Positions 791 to 48,132 of a DNA stretch of 64,000 nucleotides are shown in pieces (within the stretch, counting starts at the first letter, position 1; the number at the start of each line of letters is the position of its first letter). The DNA comes from Micavibrio sp. Lineage in GTDB: Bacteria > Pseudomonadota > Alphaproteobacteria > UBA9219. The notes beneath the pieces are model-generated. The model was not told the DNA's origin and ran no database searches. It saw only the letters and a program-made list of their open reading frames with translations. A program made the position numbers and the translations under genes. The stretch is taken from contig DYDA01000004.1 in assembly GCA_020718105.1 (NCBI GenBank), positions 6,124 through 70,123 of the forward strand, written 5' to 3'.

Positions 791-1453
791 TTATCGCAAG
801 GAAGCGTAACTCGCTATTTTTTGGAGAACGCGGCTTGAAAAGCTTTTGGGCGACGAAGGCAGGGCGGGCAAGCTCGCGGTCGCCTTGAGGTGCTGCAAAA
901 ACGCATCGCTCGTTGATAAATGGACGCTGTTGATGGCGTCGCAGGTATGGATCAGCTTTTCTTGATGCCATTGAGGGCTTTGGCCTCTGGGTTCACAACA
1001 TTTGTCTGCCATAAGATCATAAAGAGCATAGACATCAAGCCCTACCTTACGCGCCCCAAGGATCGTATCCGCAACGCAAGCGCAAGTGTTCATGCCCGTT
1101 ATAATAACCTTCTGGCAATCTTTTTCTTGAAGCTCTTGGTAGAGAAGAGAGTTCCTTTCATAGTAAAAAGCATCATTGGCACATTTAACATAAATCGGTT
1201 CGTTTTCTTTGGGCTTCACCGCATCAAGCCCTAAGCCTTTTATAAGGGCGGGGGGTCTGATCGTCGGGGCAAAGGCAAAGGATTCTGTCTGGTTATAGGC
1301 GACCCAAATGGTGGAAATGTTATGGCGCTTTAATTTATTGGCAAAGGCGCGTTCTGCCTTGACAAAAAGGCTCCGTCGCTTCTGGGGCATGGCGTGATAA
1401 AAGCGCAATTGGACATCAATAGCCAGATGAACGGCGTTAAAGGCATTTTTCAT
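791..1453 (-). CDS. isochorismatase-family cysteine hydrolase
   Basis: Motif ITGMNTCACVADTILGARKVGLDVYALYD matches the isochorismatase/YcaC catalytic-Cys region. N-terminus NAVHLAIDVQLRF resembles the family's VIDMQNDF strand. Start moved to the internal MKNAF codon at 1453. Confidence 0.6.
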   Translation of the reverse strand: MKNAFNAVHLAIDVQLRFYHAMPQKRRSLFVKAERAFANKLKRHNISTIWVAYNQTESFAFAPTIRPPALIKGLGLDAVKPKENEPIYVKCANDAFYYERNSLLYQELQEKDCQKVIITGMNTCACVADTILGARKVGLDVYALYDLMADKCCEPRGQSPQWHQEKLIHTCDAINSVHLSTSDAFLQHLKATASLPALPSSPKSFSSRVLQKIASYASLR

Positions 1454-1617
1454 AATAACGTCCCTAAAAACAAAAGCCCCCTTTTTATACAATGGCGTTG
1501 ATGAAAGTAAAAAGGAAAAAGAGGATCCTGCGCCACCCTGTCGTTCTTGGCATAATCCTGTTTCCTTCGTCGTTAATATGGCTTATTTCTTTTGGGTGAT
1601 TCTTTTCCCATTTTACG

Positions 1618-4194
1618 GTGCGTTTTTTGACCCCCATGCCCAAGACTTTGTTCACAAAAGCTCCCCTCATCGCCGTTTTGGCGATGGTTCTGGTCTTTGC
1701 CATCGTCGCGGGGGCGGGGCTGGGGCTGGACTGGCCCCTTTTGCTTGCGGTGGCGGCCCTGGTTTTTGCCGCGGCTGAGGGTGTGGCGTTGTGGAGCCTG
1801 CGGAAAAAAGCAGGGTTGGATGCTCGGTTCCTTCGCCACCTGAAATTCGTCGCAGATCGTCTTCAAGCCACCTTGCGCCATGCACCCATGGGCTATTGCC
1901 TTTTTACGCCGCAAGGCCTTTTGCGTGAGGAGCAGGCGGTGGCCTCGCGCCTTGGTCTTGGAAAACTTACGCACATGGATGAGTTGATCGGCGCGATTAA
2001 GGACAGCGGCGCGTTTTTGGCCGCGTTTCGCAAGCTTCAAACGGCGGGCGAACCTTTTGTGCAGGACATTCATCCTGTGCACGGCGGTGGGCCTTTGCGT
2101 CTTTATGGGCAACGCTTTCGCATTGGGGTCGAGGGGCCGCATATCGATGGGCTCTGGTTTTGTGATTTAAAGGCGGACGACGCCGCTCTGCCCATGCCCG
2201 CCGTTGAGGAAACAGCAAAGAGCGCCTCGCCGCCTGCGGAAAAACCAGCGTCCTTGCTTGCGGCGGCGCCTTCCGGCGGCACAAGTTGCGCTGCGGCGCT
2301 CTCTTCCTCGTCGAAGGATGGCGTGGGCTCGTGTTTTGATGCGCTGCCGTTTCCTGTCTGGGGACGCAATGCGGCGCTTGAGCTGGTGGCGTGCAACAAG
2401 GCCTATGCCAATGTTTTGGAAAGCACGCCAGAGCGCGTTTTGGCGCATCAGCATGAATTGATGCCCCCGCCCTTTAAGGGCGGGCGCACGTTGGCCGCCG
2501 CTGTCTTGGCCAAGGGCGAGGCCATGGAAGTGCGCGATCACGCGGTAATGAGCAGCCAGCGGCGCTTGCTGCAAATTGTTGAACAGCCCTTTGTCAAAGA
2601 GAAGGATGACCCGCGCTCTGTTGTTCTTTTGGGGTTTGCCATCGATGTGACGGCGGAGGAGGAAAAAGGGGCTGAGCTTCGCCGCCATCTTGTTTTGTAT
2701 CATGAGGTGATGGAACATTTAAGCGCCGCTATTTGCGTGTACGATGCGGATAAAAGGTTGGCGTTTTATAATCGCGCCTATCAACGCCTATGGGAGGCGC
2801 AGGACGTCTTTTTGGACAGCAAGCCGATGTTCAGCGATGTTTTGGAAGATTTGCGCGCGCGTCGCCGCATCCCTGAACAAGTGGATTTTCAAAAATACAA
2901 AAAGGAGCAACTGGCGCTTTTCACCTCGCTGCTTGAGCCTCGTGAGGACGTGATCTATCTGCCCGATGAAACCAGCTTGCGCGTGATGGTCGCGCCGCAT
3001 CCGTTGGGCGGCCTTATGTATGTTTATGAAAATGTCACGGATCAATTGGCGTTGGAGACATCGTACAACACATTGATGGCGGTGCAGCGCGAGACGATTG
3101 ATAATTTGGCCGAAGGCATCGCCGTGTTTGGCCCCGACGGAAAGCTGCGCCTTTCCAACGCGGCGCTGGCGACGCTGTGGGATTTGCCAGAGGCGTTTTT
3201 AGAAACAGAGCCGCATGTTTCTGATTTCTTAGAGCAAGCCAAAACGCTTATTTCAACGGAAGATGATTGGGATGCGCGTAAGGCTGAGCTGGTGGGCAAG
3301 GCGCTTCATCGTATGCCACGGTCGGGACGCATGGGCCGAACCGATCAAAAGATTGTTGAGTTTTTGACGGTGCCGTTGCCTGATGGCTCGGTGCTGAACA
3401 GTTTCCTTGACGTTACCGATTCAGCCAAGGTGGAGCAAGCACTTCGCGCCAGCAACGCCGCGCTGGCCACGGCGGATCGTCTGAAATCCGATTTCGTCGC
3501 CAATGTGTCGTATCAGTTGCGCACGCCGCTTAACACCATTACGGGTTTTGCCGAAATTTTGGTGGAGCAGTATTTTGGCGCGCTTAATGAGCGGCAGATG
3601 GATTATACGGCGACGATCAAAACGGAAAGCGAAAAGCTTTCGCGCCTTATCAACAATGTTTTGGATTTGGCGACGATTGAAGCGGGGCGCATGACCTTAG
3701 ACCTTCAATCGGTCGGTGTGGCCGACATTTTGAACGACGCCAAAGCGATGACGGCTGAATGGGCGCGGCAGCAAGCGTTAGAAATTTTAATTGATTGCCC
3801 TTCAACGATGGGCGCGTTTGAGGTGGATGAACAGCGCGTCAAACAGGTTCTTTTCAACCTTATCAGCAACGCGATTAAATACACGCCTGCGGGTGGGCAT
3901 ATCGCGCTGGCCGCATGGCCACAGGACGAATGGGTCGTCATCAGCGTTTTGGACACGGGCGTTGGCATTCCCGAAGACGATCGCGAGCGCATCTTTGGCA
4001 AGTTTGAGCGTGCCAACGCGCATCTTCGCCAAGGCGGCGCTGGATTGGGCCTTAGCCTTGTCAAAAGCTTTGTCGAGTTACACGGTGGCCGCGTTGAGAT
4101 TTTCAGCGACGCAACGGATGGCACGCGCATCAGCTGCTTCTTTCCGCGTAAAGCGCCGAAAAAGGACGAGGCTCTCTTGATCGGTAAGGCGTAA
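1618..4194 (+). CDS. PAS-domain sensor histidine kinase
   Basis: Two N-terminal TM segments. HisKA H-box SYQLRTPLNTITGFAEIL. HATPase_c N/G boxes (LISNAIKYTPAGGHI, DTGVGIP, GGAGLGLSLVKSF). Sits before tsaE, as in many alphaproteobacteria. Confidence 0.85.
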   Translation: MRFLTPMPKTLFTKAPLIAVLAMVLVFAIVAGAGLGLDWPLLLAVAALVFAAAEGVALWSLRKKAGLDARFLRHLKFVADRLQATLRHAPMGYCLFTPQGLLREEQAVASRLGLGKLTHMDELIGAIKDSGAFLAAFRKLQTAGEPFVQDIHPVHGGGPLRLYGQRFRIGVEGPHIDGLWFCDLKADDAALPMPAVEETAKSASPPAEKPASLLAAAPSGGTSCAAALSSSSKDGVGSCFDALPFPVWGRNAALELVACNKAYANVLESTPERVLAHQHELMPPPFKGGRTLAAAVLAKGEAMEVRDHAVMSSQRRLLQIVEQPFVKEKDDPRSVVLLGFAIDVTAEEEKGAELRRHLVLYHEVMEHLSAAICVYDADKRLAFYNRAYQRLWEAQDVFLDSKPMFSDVLEDLRARRRIPEQVDFQKYKKEQLALFTSLLEPREDVIYLPDETSLRVMVAPHPLGGLMYVYENVTDQLALETSYNTLMAVQRETIDNLAEGIAVFGPDGKLRLSNAALATLWDLPEAFLETEPHVSDFLEQAKTLISTEDDWDARKAELVGKALHRMPRSGRMGRTDQKIVEFLTVPLPDGSVLNSFLDVTDSAKVEQALRASNAALATADRLKSDFVANVSYQLRTPLNTITGFAEILVEQYFGALNERQMDYTATIKTESEKLSRLINNVLDLATIEAGRMTLDLQSVGVADILNDAKAMTAEWARQQALEILIDCPSTMGAFEVDEQRVKQVLFNLISNAIKYTPAGGHIALAAWPQDEWVVISVLDTGVGIPEDDRERIFGKFERANAHLRQGGAGLGLSLVKSFVELHGGRVEIFSDATDGTRISCFFPRKAPKKDEALLIGKA

Positions 4195-5637: not shown

Positions 5638-6554
5638 CGACGGCTTTCCCTTTTCTGAGCGCTACGGGCATGGTGCTGGCGGCGGGCTTTGGTAAGCGGA
5701 TGCAGCCGTTGACTCTCACAACGCCCAAGCCGTTGCTGAAGGTAGGGGGGCGGGCGATGCTGGATCTTGCCATTGATCATTTGAAGGCGGCGGGGATCAC
5801 GCGGGTTGTCGTCAACGCGCATTATCTGGCGGATCAGGTGGCCGCGCATTGTGCTGGCATTACGGACAGCACCATCCTTTTATCGCGTGAAGATGAAATT
5901 CTAGAAACGGGCGGCGGCGTAAAAAAGGCGTTGAGGGCAGGGTTGTTTCAGTCCTCGTCATTGCGAGCGCAGCGAAGCAATCCAGCGCCGCGCGTCTGCG
6001 CGGTGTGTGAGTCTTATGCGCCGTGGACACGGCGCGGCTGGATCGCCACGCTTCGCTTTGCTTCGCTCGCGATGACGAAAATAATGAGGAAGGCTCAGAA
6101 AAAAAGTAAAATCAAAAAAGAAACAAACAAGCCCTTCTTTGTCCTTGCAGGCGATATGCCGATGACGGAGGGCGCGGCGCCTGCGCTGGCGCGGTTGGCG
6201 CAGGCGTGGAATCCCAAAACGATGGACGTTTTGCTGTTGGTGATGCCGCGTGATAAGGCGCGGGGCTTTTCCGGCAAGGGCGATTTTATGATGCGCGCCG
6301 ATGGCTCTTTGGCGCGGGCTGGTGTAGGCGGCGCGGCGCGGGATGTCGTTTTTATCTCGGCCATGATTGTGAATCCCGTCCTGTATGATGAGGTCAGTGA
6401 ACCCGCTTTTTCGAACAACGTGATTTTTGATTTAGCAGAATCGCGGGGGCGGTTGTTTGGCCTTGTCCATGACGGCGCATGCTATCACGTTGGCACGCCC
6501 GAAGATTTGGCCGAGGCGAACCGGCTTCTTGAAACGGGCGAGGGCTGGCGATGA
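5634..6554 (+). CDS. nucleotidyltransferase (MurU/NTP_transferase family) carrying an in-frame ~60-aa insertion
   Basis: N-terminus LAAGFGKRMQPLTLTTPKPLLKVGG is the classic G-x-G-x-R sugar-nucleotidyltransferase motif. A palindromic DNA element interrupts the reading frame between KKALRAGL and PFFVLAGD. ATGA overlap with the upstream gene. Confidence 0.75.
   Translation: MTTAFPFLSATGMVLAAGFGKRMQPLTLTTPKPLLKVGGRAMLDLAIDHLKAAGITRVVVNAHYLADQVAAHCAGITDSTILLSREDEILETGGGVKKALRAGLFQSSSLRAQRSNPAPRVCAVCESYAPWTRRGWIATLRFASLAMTKIMRKAQKKSKIKKETNKPFFVLAGDMPMTEGAAPALARLAQAWNPKTMDVLLLVMPRDKARGFSGKGDFMMRADGSLARAGVGGAARDVVFISAMIVNPVLYDEVSEPAFSNNVIFDLAESRGRLFGLVHDGACYHVGTPEDLAEANRLLETGEGWR
5957..6128. repeat. 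MITE/REP-like palindromic element inside the nucleotidyltransferase CDS
   Basis: Left arm GTCATTGCGAGCGCAGCGAAGCAATCCAGC (5957-5986) is the imperfect reverse complement of right arm GCTGGATCGCCACGCTTCGCTTTGCTTCGCTCGCGATGAC (6037-6076). Inner hairpin GCGCCGTGgacaCGGCGC. Followed by an A-rich tail to ~6128. Confidence 0.6.
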
Positions 6555-9466
6555 GCGGCGTTTTCACCATCTCTGCAGAGCGGTGTTTTGTAAGAACTTT
6601 GGCGCGTGGCTTGCTGATGCGTGCGGGCGGCGATCCGATGCGTCTTGCCTCTATGCAAATCTATTTGCCGACGCGCCGCGCTTGCCGCGCTTTGCGGCAA
6701 GCGTTTTTACAAGAAACAGAGGCTCGCGCTACGCTTTTGCCGCGTATGCAGCCGTTGGGCGATGTGGAAGAAGACGTGCTTGATTTTATGGACGCGGGCG
6801 CTTTGGACGACTTGCCTCCCGCCATTGAGCCGCTTCGCCGCCAAATGCTTTTAACGCAATTGATTGCGAAGAAAGATCCTGCCTTGCCCTTGGATCAGGC
6901 GGCGGCGTTGGCGCAGGCGCTGGCGGCGCTTTTGGATCAGGCGCAAACGACGGGTTGCGCCTTAACGCAGTTTGGCGCGCTGGTGGCCGACGATTATGCG
7001 CAGCATTGGCAAGAAACGCTTTCGTTTTTGGAAATCGTGACAGAGGCGTGGCCCAAGGTGTTGCTTGATGAAGGCTGTGTTGATCCAGCCTCGCGGCGCG
7101 TTGCGGTTTTGGATCGTCAAGCCAAGGCGTGGGAAGCCGCCCCACCTCTCCATCCGATTATCGTGGCGGGATCAACAGGCTCACAGCCCGCCGTTGGCCG
7201 CTTGATGAAAGTGATTGCCGCTTTGCCGCAAGGCGAGGTGATTTTGCCCGCGCTGGATTTATCGTTGGAAGAAGAGGCGTGGCAAGCGATTGGCGAGACG
7301 CATCCGCAATTCACGATGAAGGTGTGGTTGGACGAATCAGGCTTTAAGCGCGAGGTCGTGCGGGGGTGGGATGCTCTTTCTGATAAGCCTGCCGCGCCGC
7401 CACGCGTGCGCCTGTTGCAAGAGTCGCTACGTCCCGCCGAGGTCACGGAAAGCTGGCAACATCTGACACCGCATGCGATTCCGCCCGAAGCTTTTGCGGG
7501 GCTTGAGGTCTTGACATTGGATCATGCCCGCGAAGAGGCGGACGTGATCGCGCTGCGCCTTCGCGCCGCGTTGGAGGAAGACGGGAAAACGGCGGCGCTT
7601 GTCACGCCCGATCGCGCTTTGGCGGCGCGGGTTGCGGCGGCGCTCACGTGCTGGGGGTTGGAGGTCAATGATTCGGCGGGCACACTGCTGGATTTGTCGC
7701 CTGTGGGGCGTTTTTTGATCGATGCGTTTAAGGCCGCCGATGCTGGCGCTGGCGCGATAGAGTTTCTGACATTGCTTAAACACCCGCTGGCCGCGATGGG
7801 CTTGCCCTTAGCGCAAGGGCGCTCTTTGACGCAAGAGGTTGAAGTAAAACTATGGCGTGGGGTGCGCCGCGCAGATGGTTTGACAGGCCATGGCGCGTTA
7901 AGCGTGGAAGGCGATGCGTGGCTGGCGCGGCTTCATGCGCTGGTATCGCCTCTTTCGCAAAGCTGGCAGACGAAAAAGACGATTGCCGCATGGCTTGATG
8001 CGCATTTGGCGCTGGCCGAAGGGTTGGCGCAAAGCGAAAGCGACGTGGGCGCGGCACGTCTTTGGCGAGGAAGCGATGGTGAGGCAGCGGCGCTGGCGCT
8101 GGATGATTGGCGTGGCGCAAGCCATGATTTCATGGCCGTGACGGGGCGCGAGTATCTGGCGTTGTTTGAATCGCTTTTGCATCAGATAACTTTGCGCCCC
8201 ACCTATGGCCAGCACCCGCGTTTGCATATTCTGGGGCCTCTTGAGGCGCGTCTTTTACAGCATGACGTGATCATTTTAGGCGGCATGAATGAGGGCACAT
8301 GGCCCCCGCAAGCAACCCTTGATCCATGGCTCTCGCGGCCCATGAAAAAACAATTGGGCTTGCCTTTGCCGGAAAAGCGCATCGGGCTTAGCGCCCATGA
8401 CTTTGCGCAACTTGCCAGCGCCCCGCAAGTCATGATGACCCGCGCAAAGCGTGTGGGGGGCGCCCCTGCCGTTCCATCGCGTTTTTGGTTGCAGCTTGGC
8501 GCGGTCTTGCAAGCCGCAGGTTATGACAAAACGGCTTTAGCGCCTAGGCTCCCATGGCAAGCTTGGGCGCGAGGCATGGATGCGCCCACCGCGCAGCCCG
8601 CGCCTTTTGCGCCGCCGTGCCCTTGTCCTTGCCTTGCCTTGCGGCCTCAAAAACTTTCCGTTACGGAAATTGGCGTGTGGCTTAGCAACCCTTATGCGAT
8701 TTATGCCAAGCATATTTTAAAGTTGAAAAAGCTGGAGCCTATCGATGCCGACCCCGCGATGGCGGATTTTGGCACGATTGTTCACGGCGCTTTAGAGGCT
8801 TTTGTGCGGGGGGATGAGCTGACCCTTGATCGCTTGCTGACCTGTGGGCGCAAGGCGTTTGCGCCGTTTGAGGATAGGCCGCAGATTGCGGCGTTCTGGT
8901 GGCCGCGCTTTGAGCGCATAGCCGCATGGTTTGTGGCCAATGAAAAGGTGCGACGCGCCGCAGGGATCCTGCCCATGGCCGTTGAGGCGCGGGGCACCAT
9001 GGCTTTTGCGAACGGGCGGTTGACGTTGATAGGCCGCGCTGATCGGATCGATCGCCTTGCGGATGGAAGCGTTCAGATTATCGATTACAAGACGGGCACG
9101 CCGCCTTCGCGCACGAAAGTGCTGGCGGGGTATGAACCTCAATTAGCGCTGCTGGCTTTAATGGCGCAGGCGGGCGCGTTTGAGGAAGTGGCCGCTGCGT
9201 CTGTGACGTCTATGGCTTATTGGGCGCTGCAAGAAAAGGACGATAAAAAGAAAATCGTCGCTTTTGATCAAACAGCGGCGGCGCAATGCGACAAGGCGCA
9301 AGAAGGCCTTGATAATCTTATCACTGCTTTTGCCGATCCCGCCACGGCGTATGCGGCCGTGCCGCGCCCGCATGTTGCGCCCCGCTTTGACGATTACGCG
9401 CATTTGGCGCGGTTGGCCGAAGGCCTTGGGGAGCAAGGGCATGGTTCTGAAAGCGAGGGTGCATGA
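6551..9466 (+). CDS. addB: double-strand break repair protein AddB (alpha type)
   Basis: 971 aa immediately upstream of, and overlapping, addA. C-terminal RecB-family nuclease motif (IIDYKTG). No helicase Walker A, as in alphaproteobacterial AddB. Confidence 0.8.
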   Translation: MSGVFTISAERCFVRTLARGLLMRAGGDPMRLASMQIYLPTRRACRALRQAFLQETEARATLLPRMQPLGDVEEDVLDFMDAGALDDLPPAIEPLRRQMLLTQLIAKKDPALPLDQAAALAQALAALLDQAQTTGCALTQFGALVADDYAQHWQETLSFLEIVTEAWPKVLLDEGCVDPASRRVAVLDRQAKAWEAAPPLHPIIVAGSTGSQPAVGRLMKVIAALPQGEVILPALDLSLEEEAWQAIGETHPQFTMKVWLDESGFKREVVRGWDALSDKPAAPPRVRLLQESLRPAEVTESWQHLTPHAIPPEAFAGLEVLTLDHAREEADVIALRLRAALEEDGKTAALVTPDRALAARVAAALTCWGLEVNDSAGTLLDLSPVGRFLIDAFKAADAGAGAIEFLTLLKHPLAAMGLPLAQGRSLTQEVEVKLWRGVRRADGLTGHGALSVEGDAWLARLHALVSPLSQSWQTKKTIAAWLDAHLALAEGLAQSESDVGAARLWRGSDGEAAALALDDWRGASHDFMAVTGREYLALFESLLHQITLRPTYGQHPRLHILGPLEARLLQHDVIILGGMNEGTWPPQATLDPWLSRPMKKQLGLPLPEKRIGLSAHDFAQLASAPQVMMTRAKRVGGAPAVPSRFWLQLGAVLQAAGYDKTALAPRLPWQAWARGMDAPTAQPAPFAPPCPCPCLALRPQKLSVTEIGVWLSNPYAIYAKHILKLKKLEPIDADPAMADFGTIVHGALEAFVRGDELTLDRLLTCGRKAFAPFEDRPQIAAFWWPRFERIAAWFVANEKVRRAAGILPMAVEARGTMAFANGRLTLIGRADRIDRLADGSVQIIDYKTGTPPSRTKVLAGYEPQLALLALMAQAGAFEEVAAASVTSMAYWALQEKDDKKKIVAFDQTAAAQCDKAQEGLDNLITAFADPATAYAAVPRPHVAPRFDDYAHLARLAEGLGEQGHGSESEGA

Positions 9467-12400
9467 CAGAACAAAGTTTTTCTCTATCGTCCCCCGCGCC
9501 TGAAAAGGAAAAGGGTTTTTTAGGTGACGTTAATGCGGCGCAACGCGCAGCGGCGGATCCGGCCGTGTCCGCGTGGGTCGGCGCATCGGCAGGATCGGGA
9601 AAGACAAAGGTGTTGGCCGATCGTGTCACGCGCCTTTTGCTGGAGGGGGTGAGGCCAGAGAAGATTTTGTGTCTGACCTTCACCCGCGCCGCTGCGGCTG
9701 AAATGTCCATTCGCCTGACGCAGCGTCTTTCGCGTTGGGCTGTGTGCGACGATGCGGCGCTGGATCATGATTTGGATTCTCTTTTGGGACTGCCTGCGAA
9801 GGAGGGGCAGCGCCTTCGCGCAAGGCGGTTGTTCGCGGGCGTTTTAGCGTGCGCGGGCGGCATGCGCTTTGTCACGATCCATGCTTTCGCGCAGGAAATC
9901 TTGCGCCGCTTTCCTTTAGAGGCGGGCGTGTCCCCCACTTTTTCGGTGATCGAGGAAGCGGACGCGCATGCTTTGTGGCAAGAGGCGCAGGGCGCTCTCC
10001 TGCAAGAAATCGCGCAGCAAAAAGACGGCGCGGCAGCGCAAGCGTTTGCCGCGTTGATCGATGTCATGGCCGAGGAAACCATGAGCGCGTTATTGCGCGA
10101 TGCTGCGTCTCATGCCCCGCGTGTGAAGGAGGCGGCGGCCACAGCGGGCGGCTTGCCCGCTCTTCTTCAAACGATGCGCAGCGCGTTAGAGTTGGAGCCG
10201 CAGGATTCGTCCGCGCTGTTTGATGCGGTGGCGGCGCGGGAAGGTGCGTTTGATCGTGCCGCGCTGTTGGCTGTGGCAAGGGCGCTGGCGGAAAAGGCTT
10301 CACCTCAATATGCGCCTCGTGGACAGATTATTTTGGATTGGTTGGAGACGGATGAGGCGGGACGCATCGCCACGTTGAATCTTTATGCGCGGGCGTTTTT
10401 GACAGACAAAGGGGAGCCTTTTGCGAAGGTTGCCGATAAAAAATGGCTTGAGGCCAACCCTGCGTATGAAAAGCCCCTGCGGACGGAAGAAGCGCGGATC
10501 ATTCGCTTGATGGAGCGGCGCGACACCTGCCGCATCGCGCAGGAAACCGCTGCTGCGTTGACACTGTCTTGGCGAATGGTTGATCTTTATGAGGCTCAAA
10601 AAACGCGCCGCGCCGCGCTGGATTACAACGATTTAATTGAAAAGGCGGGCGATGTGTTGTCCAAGGCAGGCAGCGCCGCTTGGGTTTTGTACAAACTGGA
10701 TGGCGGCATTGACCATATCTTGTTGGACGAAGCGCAAGACACCAACCCCGCGCAGTGGCGCATCGTGCAAGCGTTGACGGATGAGTTTTTTGCCGGAGAA
10801 AGCGCCCGCAGTAACGTGGGGCGCACGGCTTTTGTCGTGGGCGATGAAAAGCAATCCATTTATAGCTTTCAGGGCGCGGACGTTGCCGTCTTTGCCAAAA
10901 TGCGCGGCGCGTTTGAAAAGCGGATCACGGAGTCGGGAAGGCCGTTTCGCTCGGTTCCGATGAACGTATCGTTTCGCTCTGCCCCTGTCGTTCTTCGCGC
11001 CGTTGATTGGGTTTTTGAGGCTGATGCGGCAAGGCAAGGCGTGTCCTTGCAGCCTGTTACGCATCAGGCCTTTCGTCAAGACGCAACAGGGCGGGTAGAG
11101 GTTTGGCCTCTGTTGGTCGCAGGCGAGGATGAAGAAAAAAAGCCAAAGGCGTTGAAAGAAGCCATTGATTGGGGAATGCCTTGGGGCTACCGCGCCGCGC
11201 CCGATCCTGCCGCGCAGTTGGCGGCGCAGATCGCGCAGCAGATTAAGGCGTGGGTGACAAGCGGGCATACCGTTTATGATCGCGACCAAAAGGGCGAGCG
11301 CCCCATGACTTATGGCGACGTGATGGTGCTGGTGCAAAAGCGCGGCACGCTGGTTCCGCACTTGGTGGCGGCTTTGAAAAAAGCGGGCGTGGCTGTGTCG
11401 GGCGTGGATCGTATGCGCTTGACCTCTCAATTGGCCGTGATGGATTTGATGGCGCTTTTGCAGTTTCTTTTATTGCCACGCGATGATTTGACTTTGGCGA
11501 CTGTTTTGCGTGGACCCCTTATGGGGATAAGCGAAGAGGCGTTGATGGCGCTGGCTATAGGGCGCGGCACGCAAAGTTTGTGGGAGCGGTTGGGGGATGC
11601 GGCAACAGAAGAAAGCGAAAGAATTGAAAAAGAAAAAAGAAAACGGGATCCCCGCTTTCGCGGGGATGACGATGGAGGACAAGGCTGCAACAAAAATGCC
11701 GTCATGCCCGTGAAAACGGGCATCCCGTTTGTTTCTTGTGACGTTTCCGGTTGTGCTCCCTTCGCTTGCGTTTATGCCTATCTTCGCGCGTTGCTGGCCA
11801 AGGCGGATGGGCTATCGCCGCTCGCGCTTTTAATGATGGTCCTAAGCGACCCTTGTCCTGCCGATGCGGTGAGCGGAAGACGGGCGATGGTATCGCGCCT
11901 TGGCATCCAAGCCGAAGACCCGATGGATGAGCTTTTGGGGGCGGCTGAAGATTTCGGGACGCGCCGCGCCCCCTCCCTTCAGGCCTTTTTACACTGGCTG
12001 ACGGAAAGCGAGGCCGAGATCAAGCGCGAGATGGAAGCCGCAGGGGGGCGCGTGCGCGTGATCACGGTCCATGGCTCTAAGGGGCTGGAGTCGCCCGTTG
12101 TGATTTTGCCCGATGCCGCCCTTGAACCAAGCCGAGGTAAGCTGCCCAAGATTTTATGGGATGAGGCGCGGCGCGTGCCGTTTTATGTGCCGCGTGAGTC
12201 TTTGAACGGGCGGCTGGCCGCGCTGCGTGGGCAGGCGCGAGAGCGGCAATTAGAGGAATATCGCCGTTTGCTTTACGTGGCGATGACTCGCGCCGCTGAT
12301 CGGCTTTATATCGGTGGTTTTGTGAAAAGCGAGCCGAAGGAACCTTCCAAAAAGAAAGAGGTGGTTGATTCGTGGTATGCTCTTGTCTCCCGCGCCCTTG

Positions 12401-13158
12401 CGCCCCATCATCAGGCCGACGTTGTGGCGGGCGCGGCGCTTTTGCCGCCAACGATTGTGCTGGCCGATTATGCGACGAGCGTGGACATACGGATAAAGGG
12501 CACAGAAGAAAAAAATAAAAAGATAGCCGCGCCTTTGCCTCCCTTGCTGCCTTCGTGGCTTTTTGCTCCGCCGCCACCAGAGCCTTTGCCGCCGCGCCCG
12601 CTTGTGCCCTCACGCCCCAGCGAGGCGGAGGAAAATGCAACCCCACCTTCTGTATCGCCACAGGATGCGCGGTTTGCGCGTGGCCGCTTGATCCATCGCC
12701 TGTTGCAAAACCTTCCCGATGTTGCGGCGGAAAAAAGAGAAGCGGCCGCAAGACGGCTGTTGGCGCGGCCAGCGCATCAGTTGACGCCTGTCGCGCAAAA
12801 AGAAATCGCCCATGAAGCTCTGCGGCTTATGGAGGATCCGCGTTTCGCGCCGTTGTTTGGGAAAGAGAGCCGCGCCGAAGTTCCTGTGATCGGCCTTGCC
12901 TCAGGGCGCTTGATTTCGGGGCAAGTGGATCGCCTTGTTTTGATGGAGGGGGAGGTTTGGATCGTGGATTACAAAACCAACCGCCCTCCGCCCGCCGATT
13001 CCGCGCTCATTCCCGCCGCTTACAGGGCGCAGATGGAGGCTTACCGCACGGTGCTGCGGGCGGTTTATCCAGACCGCTTTATCCGGTGCTTTTTGTTGTG
13101 GACATACGCGCCAAAAATGATGGAAATAACCCAACCAGCTGATATATCAAGAGAATAA
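9463..13158 (+). CDS. addA: double-strand break repair helicase AddA
   Basis: UvrD/Rep helicase motifs (GSAGSGKTKVL, LLDEAQDTNP). C-terminal RecB nuclease motif (VDYKTN). ATGA overlap with addB. Length 1231 aa includes an apparent palindromic insertion. Confidence 0.9.
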   Translation: MTEQSFSLSSPAPEKEKGFLGDVNAAQRAAADPAVSAWVGASAGSGKTKVLADRVTRLLLEGVRPEKILCLTFTRAAAAEMSIRLTQRLSRWAVCDDAALDHDLDSLLGLPAKEGQRLRARRLFAGVLACAGGMRFVTIHAFAQEILRRFPLEAGVSPTFSVIEEADAHALWQEAQGALLQEIAQQKDGAAAQAFAALIDVMAEETMSALLRDAASHAPRVKEAAATAGGLPALLQTMRSALELEPQDSSALFDAVAAREGAFDRAALLAVARALAEKASPQYAPRGQIILDWLETDEAGRIATLNLYARAFLTDKGEPFAKVADKKWLEANPAYEKPLRTEEARIIRLMERRDTCRIAQETAAALTLSWRMVDLYEAQKTRRAALDYNDLIEKAGDVLSKAGSAAWVLYKLDGGIDHILLDEAQDTNPAQWRIVQALTDEFFAGESARSNVGRTAFVVGDEKQSIYSFQGADVAVFAKMRGAFEKRITESGRPFRSVPMNVSFRSAPVVLRAVDWVFEADAARQGVSLQPVTHQAFRQDATGRVEVWPLLVAGEDEEKKPKALKEAIDWGMPWGYRAAPDPAAQLAAQIAQQIKAWVTSGHTVYDRDQKGERPMTYGDVMVLVQKRGTLVPHLVAALKKAGVAVSGVDRMRLTSQLAVMDLMALLQFLLLPRDDLTLATVLRGPLMGISEEALMALAIGRGTQSLWERLGDAATEESERIEKEKRKRDPRFRGDDDGGQGCNKNAVMPVKTGIPFVSCDVSGCAPFACVYAYLRALLAKADGLSPLALLMMVLSDPCPADAVSGRRAMVSRLGIQAEDPMDELLGAAEDFGTRRAPSLQAFLHWLTESEAEIKREMEAAGGRVRVITVHGSKGLESPVVILPDAALEPSRGKLPKILWDEARRVPFYVPRESLNGRLAALRGQARERQLEEYRRLLYVAMTRAADRLYIGGFVKSEPKEPSKKKEVVDSWYALVSRALAPHHQADVVAGAALLPPTIVLADYATSVDIRIKGTEEKNKKIAAPLPPLLPSWLFAPPPPEPLPPRPLVPSRPSEAEENATPPSVSPQDARFARGRLIHRLLQNLPDVAAEKREAAARRLLARPAHQLTPVAQKEIAHEALRLMEDPRFAPLFGKESRAEVPVIGLASGRLISGQVDRLVLMEGEVWIVDYKTNRPPPADSALIPAAYRAQMEAYRTVLRAVYPDRFIRCFLLWTYAPKMMEITQPADISRE
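11630..11740. repeat. hairpin-forming palindromic element inside addA
   Basis: CGGGATCCCCGCTTTCGCGGGGATGACG and GCCGTCATGCCCGTGAAAACGGGCATCCCG are near self-complementary. Preceded by an A-rich tract. Shares the GCGGG(G)ATGACG motif with the element at 44599-44806. Confidence 0.4.
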
Positions 13159-34307: not shown

Positions 34308-35732
34308 TTGCTCATGTCTGTCGTTGTTCGCTTTGCCCCGTCGCCTACCGGATTCCTTCATATTGGGGGGGCGCGTACCGCGCTTTTTAATTGGCTTTAT
34401 GCCCGTCATACGGGTGGCCAATTCTTGATGCGGGTGGAGGATACGGATCGCCAGCGGTCAACACCGGAATCGGTTCAAACGATTTTGGACGGCATGACGT
34501 GGCTGGGCATGGATTGGGACAACAATGATCCCGCGCTCAATCATGGGAAGCATTATTATTCTCAGTTTGATATGGCTTCTCGCCATCGGGAGGTTGCGCA
34601 GAAGATGGTGGCGAATGGGACGGCTTATTATTGTTATGCCTCGCCGCAAGAGTTGGACGCCATGCGCTGTGAGCAAAAGGAAAAGGGGCTGCCGCAAAAA
34701 TATGATGGTCGGTGGCGTGATCGTCCCGCCCATGAGGCTCCCGAAGGCGTGAAGCCTGTGGTTCGCTTAAAGGCTCCGCAGACGGGGGAGACAGTTGTCG
34801 AGGATAAGGTTCTTGGGCGCGTTACTGTTCAAAACGCACAGCTTGATGACATGATCCTTCTTCGTGCGGATGGCACGCCCACTTATATGTTGGCCGTTGT
34901 CGTGGACGATCATGATATGGGCATCACGCATGTTGTTCGCGGTGACGATCATTTTACCAACACGTTCCGGCAGGTTCAGATTTATAAGGCGATGGGGTGG
35001 GACGTCCCGACCTTTGCCCATTTACCCATGATTTTGGGGCCGGATGGGGCCAAGCTTTCCAAGCGGCATGGTGCGCCCGCCGTGTCGGACTATCGCGATC
35101 GTGGCTATTTGCCAGAGGCGATTCGCAATTATCTTCTTCGCCTTTGCTGGGGGCATGGTGATGATGAAATTATTTCAACCGATCAAGCGATTGAATGGTT
35201 TGATTTTGATGGTGTTGGGCGTTCCCCTGCGCGGTTTGATTTTGCCAAGCTGAACCACCTCAATGCGCATTATATTGGATTAATGGAAAACGACAAACTG
35301 GCGCTGGCAACGCTGCCTTTCTTAGAAAAAAGGCTGGGACGCGCTGTTGGCGCGGCAGAGCAAGCCTTGCTTGAAAAAGCCTTACCTGACATCAAGCCTC
35401 GCGTTCAGCTTTTGACCGAAATTGCCGAGGCGGCGCAGTTTTATTTTGATGTGTTAGAACCTGATGAAAAAGCTCAAAAAATCCTGACGCCGGAGGCTAA
35501 GGGTCATTTAGCGGCGCTTTTAAAGCGGATCGATGCCCTTGATGCCTTCACGCACGATGTTCTTGAAGGGCTGTTCCGCTCTTATGCCGAAGAAAACGGC
35601 CTGAAGCTTGGTTCTGTGGCACAGCCCTTGCGGGCGGCGCTGACAGGGCGCGGCGTCTCCCCCCCCATTTTTACGGCGGCGGCTCTGTTGGGGAAGGGCG
35701 AGGTTTTAAGGCGGCTTGGGGGCGTGCTATAA
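34308..35732 (+). CDS. gltX: glutamate--tRNA ligase
   Basis: Class I HIGH motif (RFAPSPTGFLHIGGARTAL) and KMSKS motif (KLSKRHG). 474 aa. Confidence 0.9.
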   Translation: MLMSVVVRFAPSPTGFLHIGGARTALFNWLYARHTGGQFLMRVEDTDRQRSTPESVQTILDGMTWLGMDWDNNDPALNHGKHYYSQFDMASRHREVAQKMVANGTAYYCYASPQELDAMRCEQKEKGLPQKYDGRWRDRPAHEAPEGVKPVVRLKAPQTGETVVEDKVLGRVTVQNAQLDDMILLRADGTPTYMLAVVVDDHDMGITHVVRGDDHFTNTFRQVQIYKAMGWDVPTFAHLPMILGPDGAKLSKRHGAPAVSDYRDRGYLPEAIRNYLLRLCWGHGDDEIISTDQAIEWFDFDGVGRSPARFDFAKLNHLNAHYIGLMENDKLALATLPFLEKRLGRAVGAAEQALLEKALPDIKPRVQLLTEIAEAAQFYFDVLEPDEKAQKILTPEAKGHLAALLKRIDALDAFTHDVLEGLFRSYAEENGLKLGSVAQPLRAALTGRGVSPPIFTAAALLGKGEVLRRLGGVL

Positions 35733-43839: not shown

Positions 43840-44538
43840 TTGACCTTTCTATCCCTTTCTCTTGGCGTCGGGCAGCGGCTTGACGCCAAGGGGACGGTTT
43901 CAAAGAATAGTGTTCCGTCCAAGGGCCAGTTTGAAAAAACGCTTGGACGCGATTCTTTTTCTTGCCGTTGCTGCGGGTTCACTTCCCCAAAATACCAACG
44001 CGTTCTTTCCGTGAGCGCCCTTTCTTCGGGAAAGGGTGGCGGGGAGGATTTTGTGGCGGTCTGTTCCTTTTGTGAGCTGACGGCAACGCTTGACCGTGCG
44101 GGCCAGACAGCGGCGGGTTATGTGATCTGGTTGCCTGAGCTATCGCAAGGCGATCTCAACCACGTTATGCACGCGCTTTATATTGCGCGCGAAAGCGCCC
44201 ATGCTGAATTATCCAAAGCGGCCTCTCGCACCTTGGATGTTTTGACGGCAAGGCGGGCTGAGGCCAAGAAGCGGCTGGGCACGGATGATCCTTTGATTTT
44301 TGCCACGGCTCTTTTAGAGCAGGTGGAGCCAGCCCATGATGCCGCACGAGCGGCGCGGTTAGAGGGGCTTCGTTTTTTGCCGCTTGATCGTTACTTTGTT
44401 CCCGTTCGCGGCAAAGAAACCAACGTATTTCCGCAAATGCTGGCCTATTGGGCCTCTGCCGAAGGCCCTTACGGAAAGCTGCCTGTTGAGCAGTGGACGG
44501 CGCTGTTTGATGATGTGACCGCAAAAGCTGGCGCGTAA
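43840..44538 (+). CDS. DotN/IcmJ-like Cys-rich cytoplasmic protein (tentative)
   Basis: 232 aa (IcmJ is 208 aa). Cys clusters CRCCGF and CSFCEL. Occupies the icmJ position after the icmC/icmD-like genes. TTG start with AAGAGGG RBS. Confidence 0.35.
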   Translation: MTFLSLSLGVGQRLDAKGTVSKNSVPSKGQFEKTLGRDSFSCRCCGFTSPKYQRVLSVSALSSGKGGGEDFVAVCSFCELTATLDRAGQTAAGYVIWLPELSQGDLNHVMHALYIARESAHAELSKAASRTLDVLTARRAEAKKRLGTDDPLIFATALLEQVEPAHDAARAARLEGLRFLPLDRYFVPVRGKETNVFPQMLAYWASAEGPYGKLPVEQWTALFDDVTAKAGA

Positions 44539-44598
44539 TGCCAACGGCCATAATGATTGCCCTATGGGCGACAAACACTCAACGTCAGCCTTCCTTCT

Positions 44599-44806
44599 TT
44601 CGTCATCCCGCACGAAGCCTTGCGCGAAGCGCGCTAGGCGAAGATGCGGGACCCAGGGGGCTGGGGACGATGCCGTGGTTATTGCGGCAAGAAAAAAGCT
44701 TTTCAGCTGGGTCCCGCATCTTCGTCCCGCTATAGCTGATCCCACTGCTGTCCGGCATAGTCCGAAGGACGAAGACGGAAGGGCGTAGAGGGGTGCGGGA
44801 TGACGA
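44599..44806. repeat. MITE-like element with 15-bp terminal inverted repeats
   Basis: TTCGTCATCCCGCAC (44599-44613) is the reverse complement of GTGCGGGATGACGAA (44792-44806). Internal inverted pair GAAGATGCGGGACCCA / TGGGTCCCGCATCTTC. A-rich centre. Confidence 0.6.
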
Positions 44807-44832
44807 AGCATGGGGGAGGAGGCATTTCCCAT

Positions 44833-44866
44833 AAAAAACCCCTCGGATTTCTCCAAGGGGTTTTTC
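44833..44866 (-). terminator. rho-independent terminator downstream of groEL (bidirectional hairpin)
   Basis: AAAAAACCCCTCGGAtttctCCAAGGGGTTTTT. Read on the minus strand it is a stem followed by TTTTTTAT, ~35 nt after the groEL stop. Confidence 0.5.
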
Positions 44867-44898
44867 TTTGCCTTAGGGGCAATGCGTGGAACGGGGGA

Positions 44899-46664
<1,766 letters not shown>

Positions 46665-46985
46665 TTATTTCTTGCAGCCGCACTTGCCGGATGCGCACTT
46701 ATCAATCACGCCCATAATGTCGGACTCTTTCATGATAAGCAGGTCTTGGCCGTCAATCTTGACTTCTGTGCCAGACCATTTGCCAAACAGAATGCAGTCG
46801 CCAGCCTTAACGTCCAAGGCCACGATCTTGCCTTGCTCATCCCGCGCACCGGGGCCAACGGCGACGACTTCGCCTTCCATGGGCTTTTCTTTGGCTGTGT
46901 CGGGGATAATAATGCCGCCAGCGGTCTTGGCTTCGCTTTCAAGGCGGCGAACCACGACGCGGTCATGCAGAGGACGAAATTTCAT
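46665..46985 (-). CDS. groES: co-chaperonin GroES with Cys-rich C-terminal extension
   Basis: [29 protein letters not shown] is the canonical GroES sequence. The extra C-terminal tail [12 protein letters not shown] is absent from typical ~95-aa GroES. Confidence 0.9.
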
Positions 46986-47011
46986 CGGTCTTGCTCCTTA
47001 CTAAGTTGTTG

Positions 47012-47029
47012 GCTGAGGCTAAAGCCTCA
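47012..47029 (-). promoter_or_regulatory. perfect hairpin in the groES 5' UTR (not a CIRCE match)
   Basis: CTGAGGCTaaAGCCTCAG lies ~27 nt upstream of the groES ATG, just 5' of the AAGGAG RBS. Confidence 0.3.
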
Positions 47030-47396
47030 GGATGCTCAATCGCTTTTATTTCTTTTTCCGTTTCATATCCGAAATGGAAAAAGAGGGACAGAAGGCAGGC
47101 CTAGGCTTAGCCTTGTTTCTGACTGGACTCATGTAAGCGCTTTGAAGGGCTGTTTCAAGGCTTGTTAATAAATAATTTACGGTTTGCCATCGTGTCCCTA
47201 TTGCCTCCTTCTTTGTTATAAAAAAGAGCGCATCAAGCGAGGCATGTTAACCATGCTGCGGGATCATTCCGTCTATATGGGGGACAGGTCACACGTAGAA
47301 GGCCTCTCCTTTGCGTTAGGATGAGGCTGGGTGCGTTATTTTGAGGGCTCGGCTGGGGTAGTAGCGCAGGAACTTTCCAAGCGCTCTGGGACGCTT

Positions 47397-47858
47397 CTAT
47401 GAGGTCACCTCTGTTTGCCTGATCGCTTCTCCCAAAACCATGGCAGCGGCAAGGGCGACGTTAAGGGATCGAAGCCCTTTGGCCATGGGGATGGTGACGC
47501 GGGCGCTTACGGCATCATGGACGGCATCGGGGACTCCCGCACTTTCTCTACCCACCATCAGGATATCATCGGGGCGATATGAAAAGGAGGTGTAGGGAAC
47601 GGCGGCTTTGGTGGTGAGCAAGACGATGCGCCGCTCTGTGCTTGCCGCTTGAAACGTCGCCCAATCCCTGTGGCGCGTGTAGTCGATATGGTCGATATAA
47701 TCCATAGCGACGCGGTGCAGACGTTTATCGTCCCAGATAAAGCCGCAGGGCTCGATGATATCAAGGCTGATGCCAAGGCACGCGCCAAGGCGCATCATAG
47801 AGCCTGTGTTGGTCGGCATGTCAGGCTGGTAAAGGGCAAGGCGAAGAGAGGTGGACAT
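47397..47858 (-). CDS. trmL: tRNA (cytidine/uridine-2'-O)-methyltransferase TrmL (SpoU family)
   Basis: LRLALYQPDMPTNTGSMMRLGACLG matches the TrmL N-terminus (SPOUT knot, NTG motif). 153 aa. Confidence 0.8.
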   Translation of the reverse strand: MSTSLRLALYQPDMPTNTGSMMRLGACLGISLDIIEPCGFIWDDKRLHRVAMDYIDHIDYTRHRDWATFQAASTERRIVLLTTKAAVPYTSFSYRPDDILMVGRESAGVPDAVHDAVSARVTIPMAKGLRSLNVALAAAMVLGEAIRQTEVTS

Positions 47859-47933
47859 AAGTTTTTAATCCGGTAAAGTTGAAGGAGTATACCTAAAACA
47901 GTTCAAAAGGTGGAAAAGGCAAGCACACTCAAT

Positions 47934-48074
47934 CACCCTCCCCTTGCGGGAGGGTCGGAAAACGCGTGAGCGTTTTTCGGGGAGGGGTCGTTTTTCATTG
48001 TGTTTTGACCCCTCCCCAAGATTTTTTCTCCCTACGGGATCAAAAATCTTGTGCCCTCCCGCAAGGGGAGGGCG
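47934..48074. repeat. compound palindromic element (five hairpins) with terminal inverted repeats
   Basis: Terminal hairpins CCCTCCCcttgcGGGAGGG (47936-) and CCCTCCCgcaagGGGAGGG (-48072) are mutually inverted. Internal stems GGGGAGGGGTC...GACCCCTCCCC (11 bp) and AAGATTTTT...AAAAATCTT (9 bp). Confidence 0.6.
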
Positions 48075-48132
48075 ATTTTAGTGCCAACTCTTCATTCACG
48101 ATGGGTCTATAGCTTAACGGACAGGACAAGCG

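Follow-up and report, generated by a model that had tools for sequence, protein, structure and literature searches.

An in-frame palindromic insertion in addA

The 64-kb stretch of DNA analysed here (hereafter the window), taken from contig DYDA01000004.1 of a metagenome-assembled genome (MAG) labelled Micavibrio sp., carries an addA gene whose 1231-residue product is interrupted by a 49-codon palindromic segment. This segment contains two hairpins that match the pattern of SRM (Ssn-related motif) repeats, the single-stranded DNA (ssDNA) substrates of the Ssn nucleases described below. The host gene and the parts of the element are as follows.

9463-13158, plus strand: addA, the insertion host, encoding 1231 aa (open reading frame (ORF) list, translation, and Pfam UvrD-helicase, UvrD_C and PDDEXK_1)
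11605-11751, plus strand: inserted palindromic element, 147 nt or 49 codons, residues ~715-763, delimited by alignment with the addA of locus L001
11606-11643, minus strand: T-rich tail of unit 1, A-rich on the plus strand, encoding EESERIEKEKRKR
11644-11671, minus strand: SRM hairpin unit 1, CGTCATCCCCGCGAAAGCGGGGATCCCG, with stem 11648-11655/11660-11667 and loop 11656-11659, read in AddA as DPRFRGDD
11672-11699, no strand: 28-nt spacer between the hairpin heads, its sequence not conserved
11700-11727, plus strand: SRM hairpin unit 2, CGTCATGCCCGTGAAAACGGGCATCCCG, with stem 11704-11711/11716-11723 and loop 11712-11715, read in AddA as VMPVKTGIP
11728-11751, plus strand: T-rich tail of unit 2, TTTGTTTCTTGTG..., seen in the sequence, with similar tails after SRMs in L167, L217, L202 and L253

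An earlier reading of the window, made from the sequence alone (the sequence-only reading), had singled out the stretch EKEKRKRDPRFRGDDDGGQGCNKNAVMPVKTGIPF within the 1231-aa AddA as repeat-derived and placed it at 11620-11760. The stretch is indeed present in the AddA translation, and these coordinates correspond to residues 720-766, exactly the columns that are gapped in at least 80% of orthologs. Alignment of 28 AddA orthologs (48-79% identity), proposed at the same time as a check, identifies the segment as foreign and in frame: it is absent from all 28, including the nearest, and the sequences on either side (…SLWERLG… and …YLRALL…PCPA) are conserved. Small differences of a few residues occur among the orthologs in this loop, and none has more than about 6 additional residues. 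In the nearest relative, P0002 (locus L001), addA shares 79% nucleotide identity with the window gene, and the sole large window-specific gap falls at ~11604-11757. The element boundaries were drawn from a codon-wise reading combined with global alignment and are uncertain by ~6 nt. Within them the GC content is 48%, against 58% for addA, and three of the six frames are free of stops. The alignments show that, relative to the sampled relatives, the element was inserted into addA after the lineages split.

The sequence-only reading had counted this as the second in-frame element of addA. No first one was seen, as the other AddA-specific insertions in the 28-ortholog alignment do not exceed 5 aa. 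An inverted repeat at 11955-11977/12158-12180 was considered for the role of first element and rejected, there being no ortholog gap at that place; its 23-nt arms, 87% complementary, lie in a conserved part of addA and probably match each other by chance within GC-rich coding sequence. A literature search on the repeat-derived peptides gave no matches, and a protein-database search with the 48-aa insert returned no candidate.

Architecture of the element

The element is dominated by a 38-nt inverted repeat (11634-11671/11700-11737, 82% complementary) that ranks first among those of the window. Each arm contains a self-complementary hairpin, ATCCCCGC-TTTC-GCGGGGAT at 11648-11667 (hairpin 1) and ATGCCCGT-GAAA-ACGGGCAT at 11704-11723 (hairpin 2). 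Both of the strong hairpins noted from the sequence alone are thus present, with 8-bp stems that are 100% complementary. The two units differ at two stem pairs, and both changes are compensated. They oppose each other head to head: the CGTCAT heads, 28 nt apart, point inward and the T-rich tails outward; the A-rich tract reported earlier in front of the hairpins is likewise real and represents the complement of the tail of the minus-strand unit. Folded as ssDNA, the region reaches -37 kcal/mol, compared with -24.4 +/- 3.3 for shuffled sequences (z = -3.8; none of 200 shuffles was as good). A degenerate hairpin pattern finds 4 matches in the window, two sites on both strands, where 0.05 would be expected.

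Relation to SRM repeats and Ssn nucleases

The Ssn nuclease family has been defined together with two repeat types, the Neisseria Transformation Sequence (NTS), CGTCATTCCCGCGMAVGCGGGAATCYRG, which contains the dRS3 repeat, and the degenerate SRM (PMC11893778, Nat Commun 2025). Small GIY-YIG proteins of this family, SsnA, bind the hairpins as ssDNA only and cut a few nucleotides upstream, and in Neisseria the NTS repeats modulate the integration of transforming DNA (PMC11893778). The SRM pattern taken from that study, HGTCWYN(0-2)YYVSBRHN(0-5)WNVSBRGN(0-2)RNCYNB, is matched by both addA hairpins, at 11644-11671 on the minus strand and at 11700-11727 on the plus strand. The window contains 3 matches in total, compared with a mean of 0.27 in shuffled windows; the third, at 35654-35686, forms no hairpin and was rejected as a chance match.

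Both hairpins combine a CGTCAT 5' head with a CCCGYG...CRCGGG stem closed by 4 loop nucleotides, and a C directly follows the palindrome; all of these features fit the published SRM/NTS description, and both hairpins have the 5' flank and the C after the palindrome that are reported as critical (PMC11893778). They depart from the strict Neisseria NTS consensus, which allows at most 1 mismatch, by 3 mismatches each. The dRS3 core ATTCCC-N8-GGGAAT is replaced by ATCCCC-N8-GGGGAT and ATGCCC-N8-GGGCAT, and the tail reads ATCCCGT followed by a T-run, in contrast to ATCYRG in the NTS. By these sequence features the addA hairpins are members of the SRM class and not NTS proper, and the addA element as a whole joins two 28-nt SRM hairpins, both T-tailed, in a head-to-head dimer. 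Rfam holds no family for the element and returned only sub-threshold matches to generic long hairpins.

Position of the insert in the AddA protein

AddA homologs number in the thousands, and comparison with 120 orthologs indicates that the helicase and nuclease motifs of the window protein are intact, every invariant motif residue being present. HMMER aligns AddA 662-712 with B. subtilis AddA 626-676, which puts the insertion site just after residue 676, and aligns AddA 862-963 (TVHGSKGLE…YVAMTRA, helicase motifs V and VI) with B. subtilis AddA 786-893. The insert lies upstream of motifs V and VI; the linker between helicase and nuclease follows later, at residues ~955-1060. In superfamily 1A (SF1A) helicases, the stretch between the position of B. 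subtilis AddA 676 and motifs V and VI forms the 2B subdomain, and 2B domains in these enzymes are regulatory. Judged from the alignment, the insert is in the helicase 2B region and outside the helicase-nuclease linker to which the sequence-only reading had assigned it. The same reading had called addA essential, which we correct here: it is not normally an essential gene.

An AlphaFold2 model of AddA residues 480-1000 has a mean predicted local distance difference test score (pLDDT) of 85.5 and matches the AddA chain of AddAB-DNA structures (4cej_A, E = 1e-21). In the model, EESERIEKEKRKR prolongs a confident helix (pLDDT above 90), residues 729-765 form a loop with pLDDT 44-63, and from residue 766 onward the chain is again a confident helix. 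The suggestion that the insert would map to a loop is thus supported, the modelled segment being a low-confidence loop between two helices. For the isolated AddA segment, the model leaves the insert peptide exposed to solvent where the fold can accommodate it, as in the Rickettsia palindromic elements (RPE).

In-frame copies in related genomes

Independent in-frame SRM insertions are also found at other positions in addA and in other genes of related genomes.

6551-9466, plus strand: addB gene of the window, 971 aa, empty where the addB of L001 carries an SRM dimer
L001 9245-9272 (plus strand) and 9291-9318 (minus strand): two SRMs, tail to tail, in an in-frame insert of ~50 aa (…VIPAKAGIPCVEKRKRDSRLRGSDGG…) in addB
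P0028/L240, AddA residues 267-301, L240 10798-10904: AddA insert, SRM pair confirmed in the DNA
P0029/L241, AddA residues 939-972, L241 12813-12917: AddA insert, SRM pair confirmed in the DNA
L241 3227-3254: in-frame SRM in an APH-family phosphotransferase gene, host verified by Pfam
L182 4695-4722: in-frame SRM in a CysRS gene, between the catalytic and DALR domains, host verified by Pfam

The comparison with L001 is reciprocal. Its addA is empty at the insertion site of the window, and a BLASTP alignment of the two AddB proteins leaves a 50-aa gap in the window protein opposite ...VIPAKAGIPCVEKRKRDSRLRGSDGG... The two insertions are related in sequence: a 31-mer is identical between hairpin 1 of the window and one of the L001 addB hairpins, lying in opposite orientation relative to the host gene, and the 17-mer GAAAAAAGAAAACGGGA from the tail of unit 1 is identical in the L001 addB insert. 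The P0028 and P0029 cases were found by a peptide search among the 120 AddA orthologs. A broader search flagged 26 of 201 SRMs as lying in long stop-free frames; most of those from GC-rich genomes proved on inspection to be spurious antisense ORFs, and the intragenic tally counts Pfam-verified cases only.

Distribution of the repeat family

The generic hairpin is extremely widespread, with at least 120 stretches in viral contigs. The form with an ATCCCGT tail accounts for 1 of 146 generic hairpins among the viral-contig matches listed, and a search of one genome per species recovered it in at least 117 stretches spread over many phyla, with repeated hits in several alphaproteobacterial MAGs, such as JAATFY01 with at least 8 SRM stretches. 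Of 128 units among the matches listed, 122, 125 and 124 show complementarity at the three stem positions that the search pattern leaves free; T-A, C-G and G-C pairs are all used at these positions, and the stem itself is therefore maintained. An identical TTTTCTTTTTTC tail follows SRMs in L200 and in other alphaproteobacterial MAGs (Rhodospirillales and 'Micavibrio'-labelled). Several AddA orthologs are labelled 'Bdellovibrionales' because NCBI places Micavibrio under that order.

Adjacent SRM pairs are arranged tail to tail in 41 of 57 cases among the matches listed, and head-to-head pairs with gaps of 28-29 nt, as in addA, recur in L006, L032, L042 and L189. A 96-aa gene with a Pfam GIY-YIG match lies, in L200, between a plus-strand and a minus-strand SRM whose tails point inward; L200 is a Rhodospirillales MAG in which at least 8 stretches bear SRMs. 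L032 has the same arrangement. This layout is that of the published SRM-ssnA-SRM cassette (PMC11893778), and tail-to-tail dimers such as that in the addB of L001 look like cassettes minus the gene. SRM copies occur both between genes and within other genes, in agreement with the proposal that a single repeat family occupies both kinds of site.

A second palindromic family in the window

The sequence-only reading had linked the addA element to an intergenic repeat located downstream in the window.

44601-44806, no strand: 206-bp composite palindrome (the earlier '208-bp element'), made up of two inverted, long-loop SRM-like units, left at 44601-44656 (plus strand) and right at 44707-44806 (minus strand), heads outward

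This element lies between the convergent ORFs 43840-44538 (plus strand) and 44899-46548 (minus strand), has a perfect 18-nt inner repeat (44639-44656/44707-44724; inverted repeat I6) and folds at -65.8 kcal/mol (z = -7.9). Its halves read CGTCATCCCGCAC-[32 or 79 nt]-GATGCGGGACCCAG, with structured loops, and do not fit the SRM pattern. A metagenome scan with the half-unit found 13 loci, 6 of them full palindromes of 154-179 bp, and the inner hairpins of this long-loop family (155-206 bp) vary in sequence and keep their pairing. Two of the loci have a GIY-YIG gene nearby: in L244 (1118-1730) an ssnA-like gene stands beside a long-loop unit, and in L247 (~1286-1900, minus strand) a GIY-YIG ORF abuts such a unit, its frame appearing to run into the unit and to be cut short by it.

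The addA and 206-bp elements have in common the CGTCAT-CCCGC head, a similar 3' flank, a paired inverted layout and a GIY-YIG neighbourhood, and the shared motif faces inward in the former and outward in the latter. The motif GCGGG(G)ATGACG, on which the earlier link was based, is present in both when a 1-nt indel is allowed (the exact overlap is GGGATGACG, 9 nt), but the 12-mer with up to 2 mismatches occurs 19 times in the window against 7.2 +/- 2.9, not clearly above chance. The idea that the two elements form one family fails, given that the halves of the intergenic element fall outside the SRM pattern and constitute a long-loop family of their own. On sequence grounds, 44601-44806 is a separate family of a related class, linked to the addA element at the level of a superfamily.

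Directly after the 206-bp element and between the same convergent genes, positions 44838-44866 hold a GC hairpin and T-run resembling a terminator (aaaaaacccctcggatttctccaaggggttttt).

Origin of the addA element

We favour, with good confidence, the reading that the addA element is a 147-bp non-autonomous palindromic repeat made of two T-tailed SRM hairpins placed head to head, SRMs being ssDNA substrates of Ssn, which inserted into addA and is tolerated there. SRM elements may spread as ssDNA hairpins, either from SRM-ssnA-SRM cassettes or from gene-less derivatives, and would be moved in trans by a hairpin-recognising enzyme for which Ssn is the obvious candidate. Such mobility is suggested by analogy with repetitive extragenic palindromic (REP) sequences, bacterial interspersed mosaic elements (BIME) and their REP-associated tyrosine transposases (RAYT). 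Copies that break genes would be purged by selection, and in-frame copies that leave a working host would be retained. The copy in addA would persist because it is divisible by three in length, is read in a frame free of stops and sits between two helices of the 2B region. The insert would lengthen a helix with charged residues and add a flexible loop, leaving the catalytic motifs untouched, and its effect at the protein level is most likely neutral. At the level of DNA, the two hairpins would make addA ssDNA a potential site of Ssn cleavage.

Several observations weigh against this reading. No clear target-site duplication was found, the boundaries showing at most a 2-3 nt repeat (GC/TGC) against the empty L001 site, which is not above chance. 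Neither the 64-kb window nor the 23.5 kb of L001 contains an ssnA-like GIY-YIG gene in regular-expression and tblastn searches, and the window holds one canonical SRM pair only. The head-to-head form is a minority among adjacent pairs (6 of 57 among the matches listed), so that loss of the gene from an ssnA cassette does not by itself account for the addA element. Published work on Ssn shows ssDNA cleavage and an effect on transformation only, and no mobilisation of SRMs (PMC11893778).

The sequence-only reading had named the element a miniature inverted-repeat transposable element (MITE). A classic MITE would be an internally deleted insertion sequence (IS) that is bounded by terminal inverted repeats, depends on a DDE transposase for its movement and belongs to the same family as the 206-bp element. 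The small size of the addA element, its AT-richer composition relative to the host, its long inverted repeat and the CGTCAT-CCCGC motif that it shares with the termini of the 206-bp element all agree with such an origin. The inverted repeat, however, is internal and consists of two self-contained SRM hairpins rather than transposase-binding ends, the shared motif has the opposite orientation in the two elements, and the intergenic halves belong to the other, long-loop family. Moreover, a target-site duplication is not visible, no IS or transposase was found, and elsewhere such repeats enclose the gene of a GIY-YIG nuclease and not that of a transposase. We regard the MITE origin as very unlikely and replace the label with that of an SRM/NTS-type hairpin dimer with T-rich tails. 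A native, fast-evolving AddA loop with chance hairpins, or an artefact of assembly, is more improbable still. Orthologs do vary here, but by far fewer residues than the insert adds (~6 at most), chance is at odds with the 4 hairpin-pattern matches against 0.05 expected, and a 31-mer recurs unchanged in a repeat copy within another gene of another genome. The insert is no assembly artefact, because the identical 1231-aa protein (P0001) is on record from 3 contigs; its flanks, furthermore, join in frame.

Co-option of the element is a further alternative, which we consider unlikely. Under it, the charged peptide (EKEKRKRDPRFRGDDD...) in 2B would alter how AddAB handles DNA or partners, or the hairpins would act as a regulatory or Ssn-sensitive site tuning addA expression or recombination. 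The regulatory role of 2B domains in SF1A helicases would suit such a function, as would the confident helix extension that part of the insert forms in the AlphaFold2 model. Both stems are perfect, with every difference between the units compensated, the clade has four SRM dimer insertions in addA or addB, and a precedent exists in the Neisseria NTS repeats that modulate integration of transforming DNA (PMC11893778). Yet the four addAB insertions occupy four sites in differing orientations, a better fit to chance tolerance, and the 3 affected AddA orthologs out of 120 are no more than a plausible background rate would give in a 3.5-kb gene, two of the four cases having come from a peptide search. 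Most of the insert, moreover, has pLDDT 44-63, and it is not conserved across species.

Comparison with known repeats and implications

The closest likeness is to the RPE and the Wolbachia palindromic elements (WPE). As outlined in the literature on them (Ogata et al. via PMC10969869; PMC3767692), these are palindromic repeats of 100-150 bp found in frame in unrelated housekeeping genes, solvent-exposed, and with no known mobilising enzyme. Compared by description, the addA element agrees with the RPE in its length of 147 nt, its in-frame position and the intact motifs of its host. It differs in that its host is a free-standing alphaproteobacterial MAG lineage of ~52-58% GC rather than Rickettsia or Wolbachia, and in that RPE insertions are mostly common to all Rickettsia orthologs, whereas a single lineage has the addA insertion. 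In the R. japonica genome paper the ATGAC motif is given as the signature of RPE-4, RPE-6, RPE-7 and WPE, and this motif is complementary to the SRM head, GTCAT. Rickettsia and Wolbachia are among the SRM-rich taxa of PMC11893778, which mentions neither RPE nor in-frame or intragenic copies. By analogy, a connection between SRM and RPE is plausible.

Two other systems are similar in part. REP/BIME repeats with their RAYT (IS200/IS605-like Y1) transposases share with SRMs the short oriented hairpins, the inverted pairs that flank the gene of an ssDNA-recognising enzyme and the many scattered copies. Unlike them, SRMs are associated with a GIY-YIG enzyme and not an HUH-Y1 enzyme, the addA head is CGTCAT with no GTAG-type head, and the addA copy is coding, whereas REPs are extragenic by definition. 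The Coxiella QMITE and other MITEs that fuse in frame (PMC10969869) are likewise small non-autonomous repeats read through in host ORFs, but the traits that define MITEs, namely a parent IS, target-site duplications and terminal inverted repeats, are not evident in the addA element.

The addA insert is thus a new example of an already known class, an RPE analogue of the SRM class. Its significance alone is modest, and the insert is probably neutral with respect to AddAB; what it adds is evidence for SRM repeats as coding palindromes outside Rickettsiales. Ssn-linked hairpin repeats are not solely intergenic: in one alphaproteobacterial clade they are found in frame in addA (three sites), addB, CysRS and a kinase-family gene. 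RPE-like behaviour now extends beyond Rickettsiales, and coding palindromes gain a plausible enzyme partner. That SRM-class hairpin repeats are a general source of protein-coding palindromes in bacteria is a more tentative proposition, which we hold to be possible but rather doubtful; if true, it would offer a concrete, testable enzyme for the 25-year-old question of how RPE move. For annotation, VIPAKAGI and DxRFRGxD peptides are to be read as repeat-derived inserts and not as functional motifs.

Other palindromes and base composition of the window

A third composite palindrome, also intergenic, is located at 47931-48077. Its 24-nt arms are 96% complementary with 99 nt between them, and each arm holds a CCCTCCC-CTTGC-GGGAGGG hairpin of a family other than SRM. 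GC skew is positive along the window (0.09-0.19) except at 44001-48000, where it falls to 0.00-0.04; this low-skew region of 44-48 kb holds two intergenic palindromes and a long minus-strand ORF.

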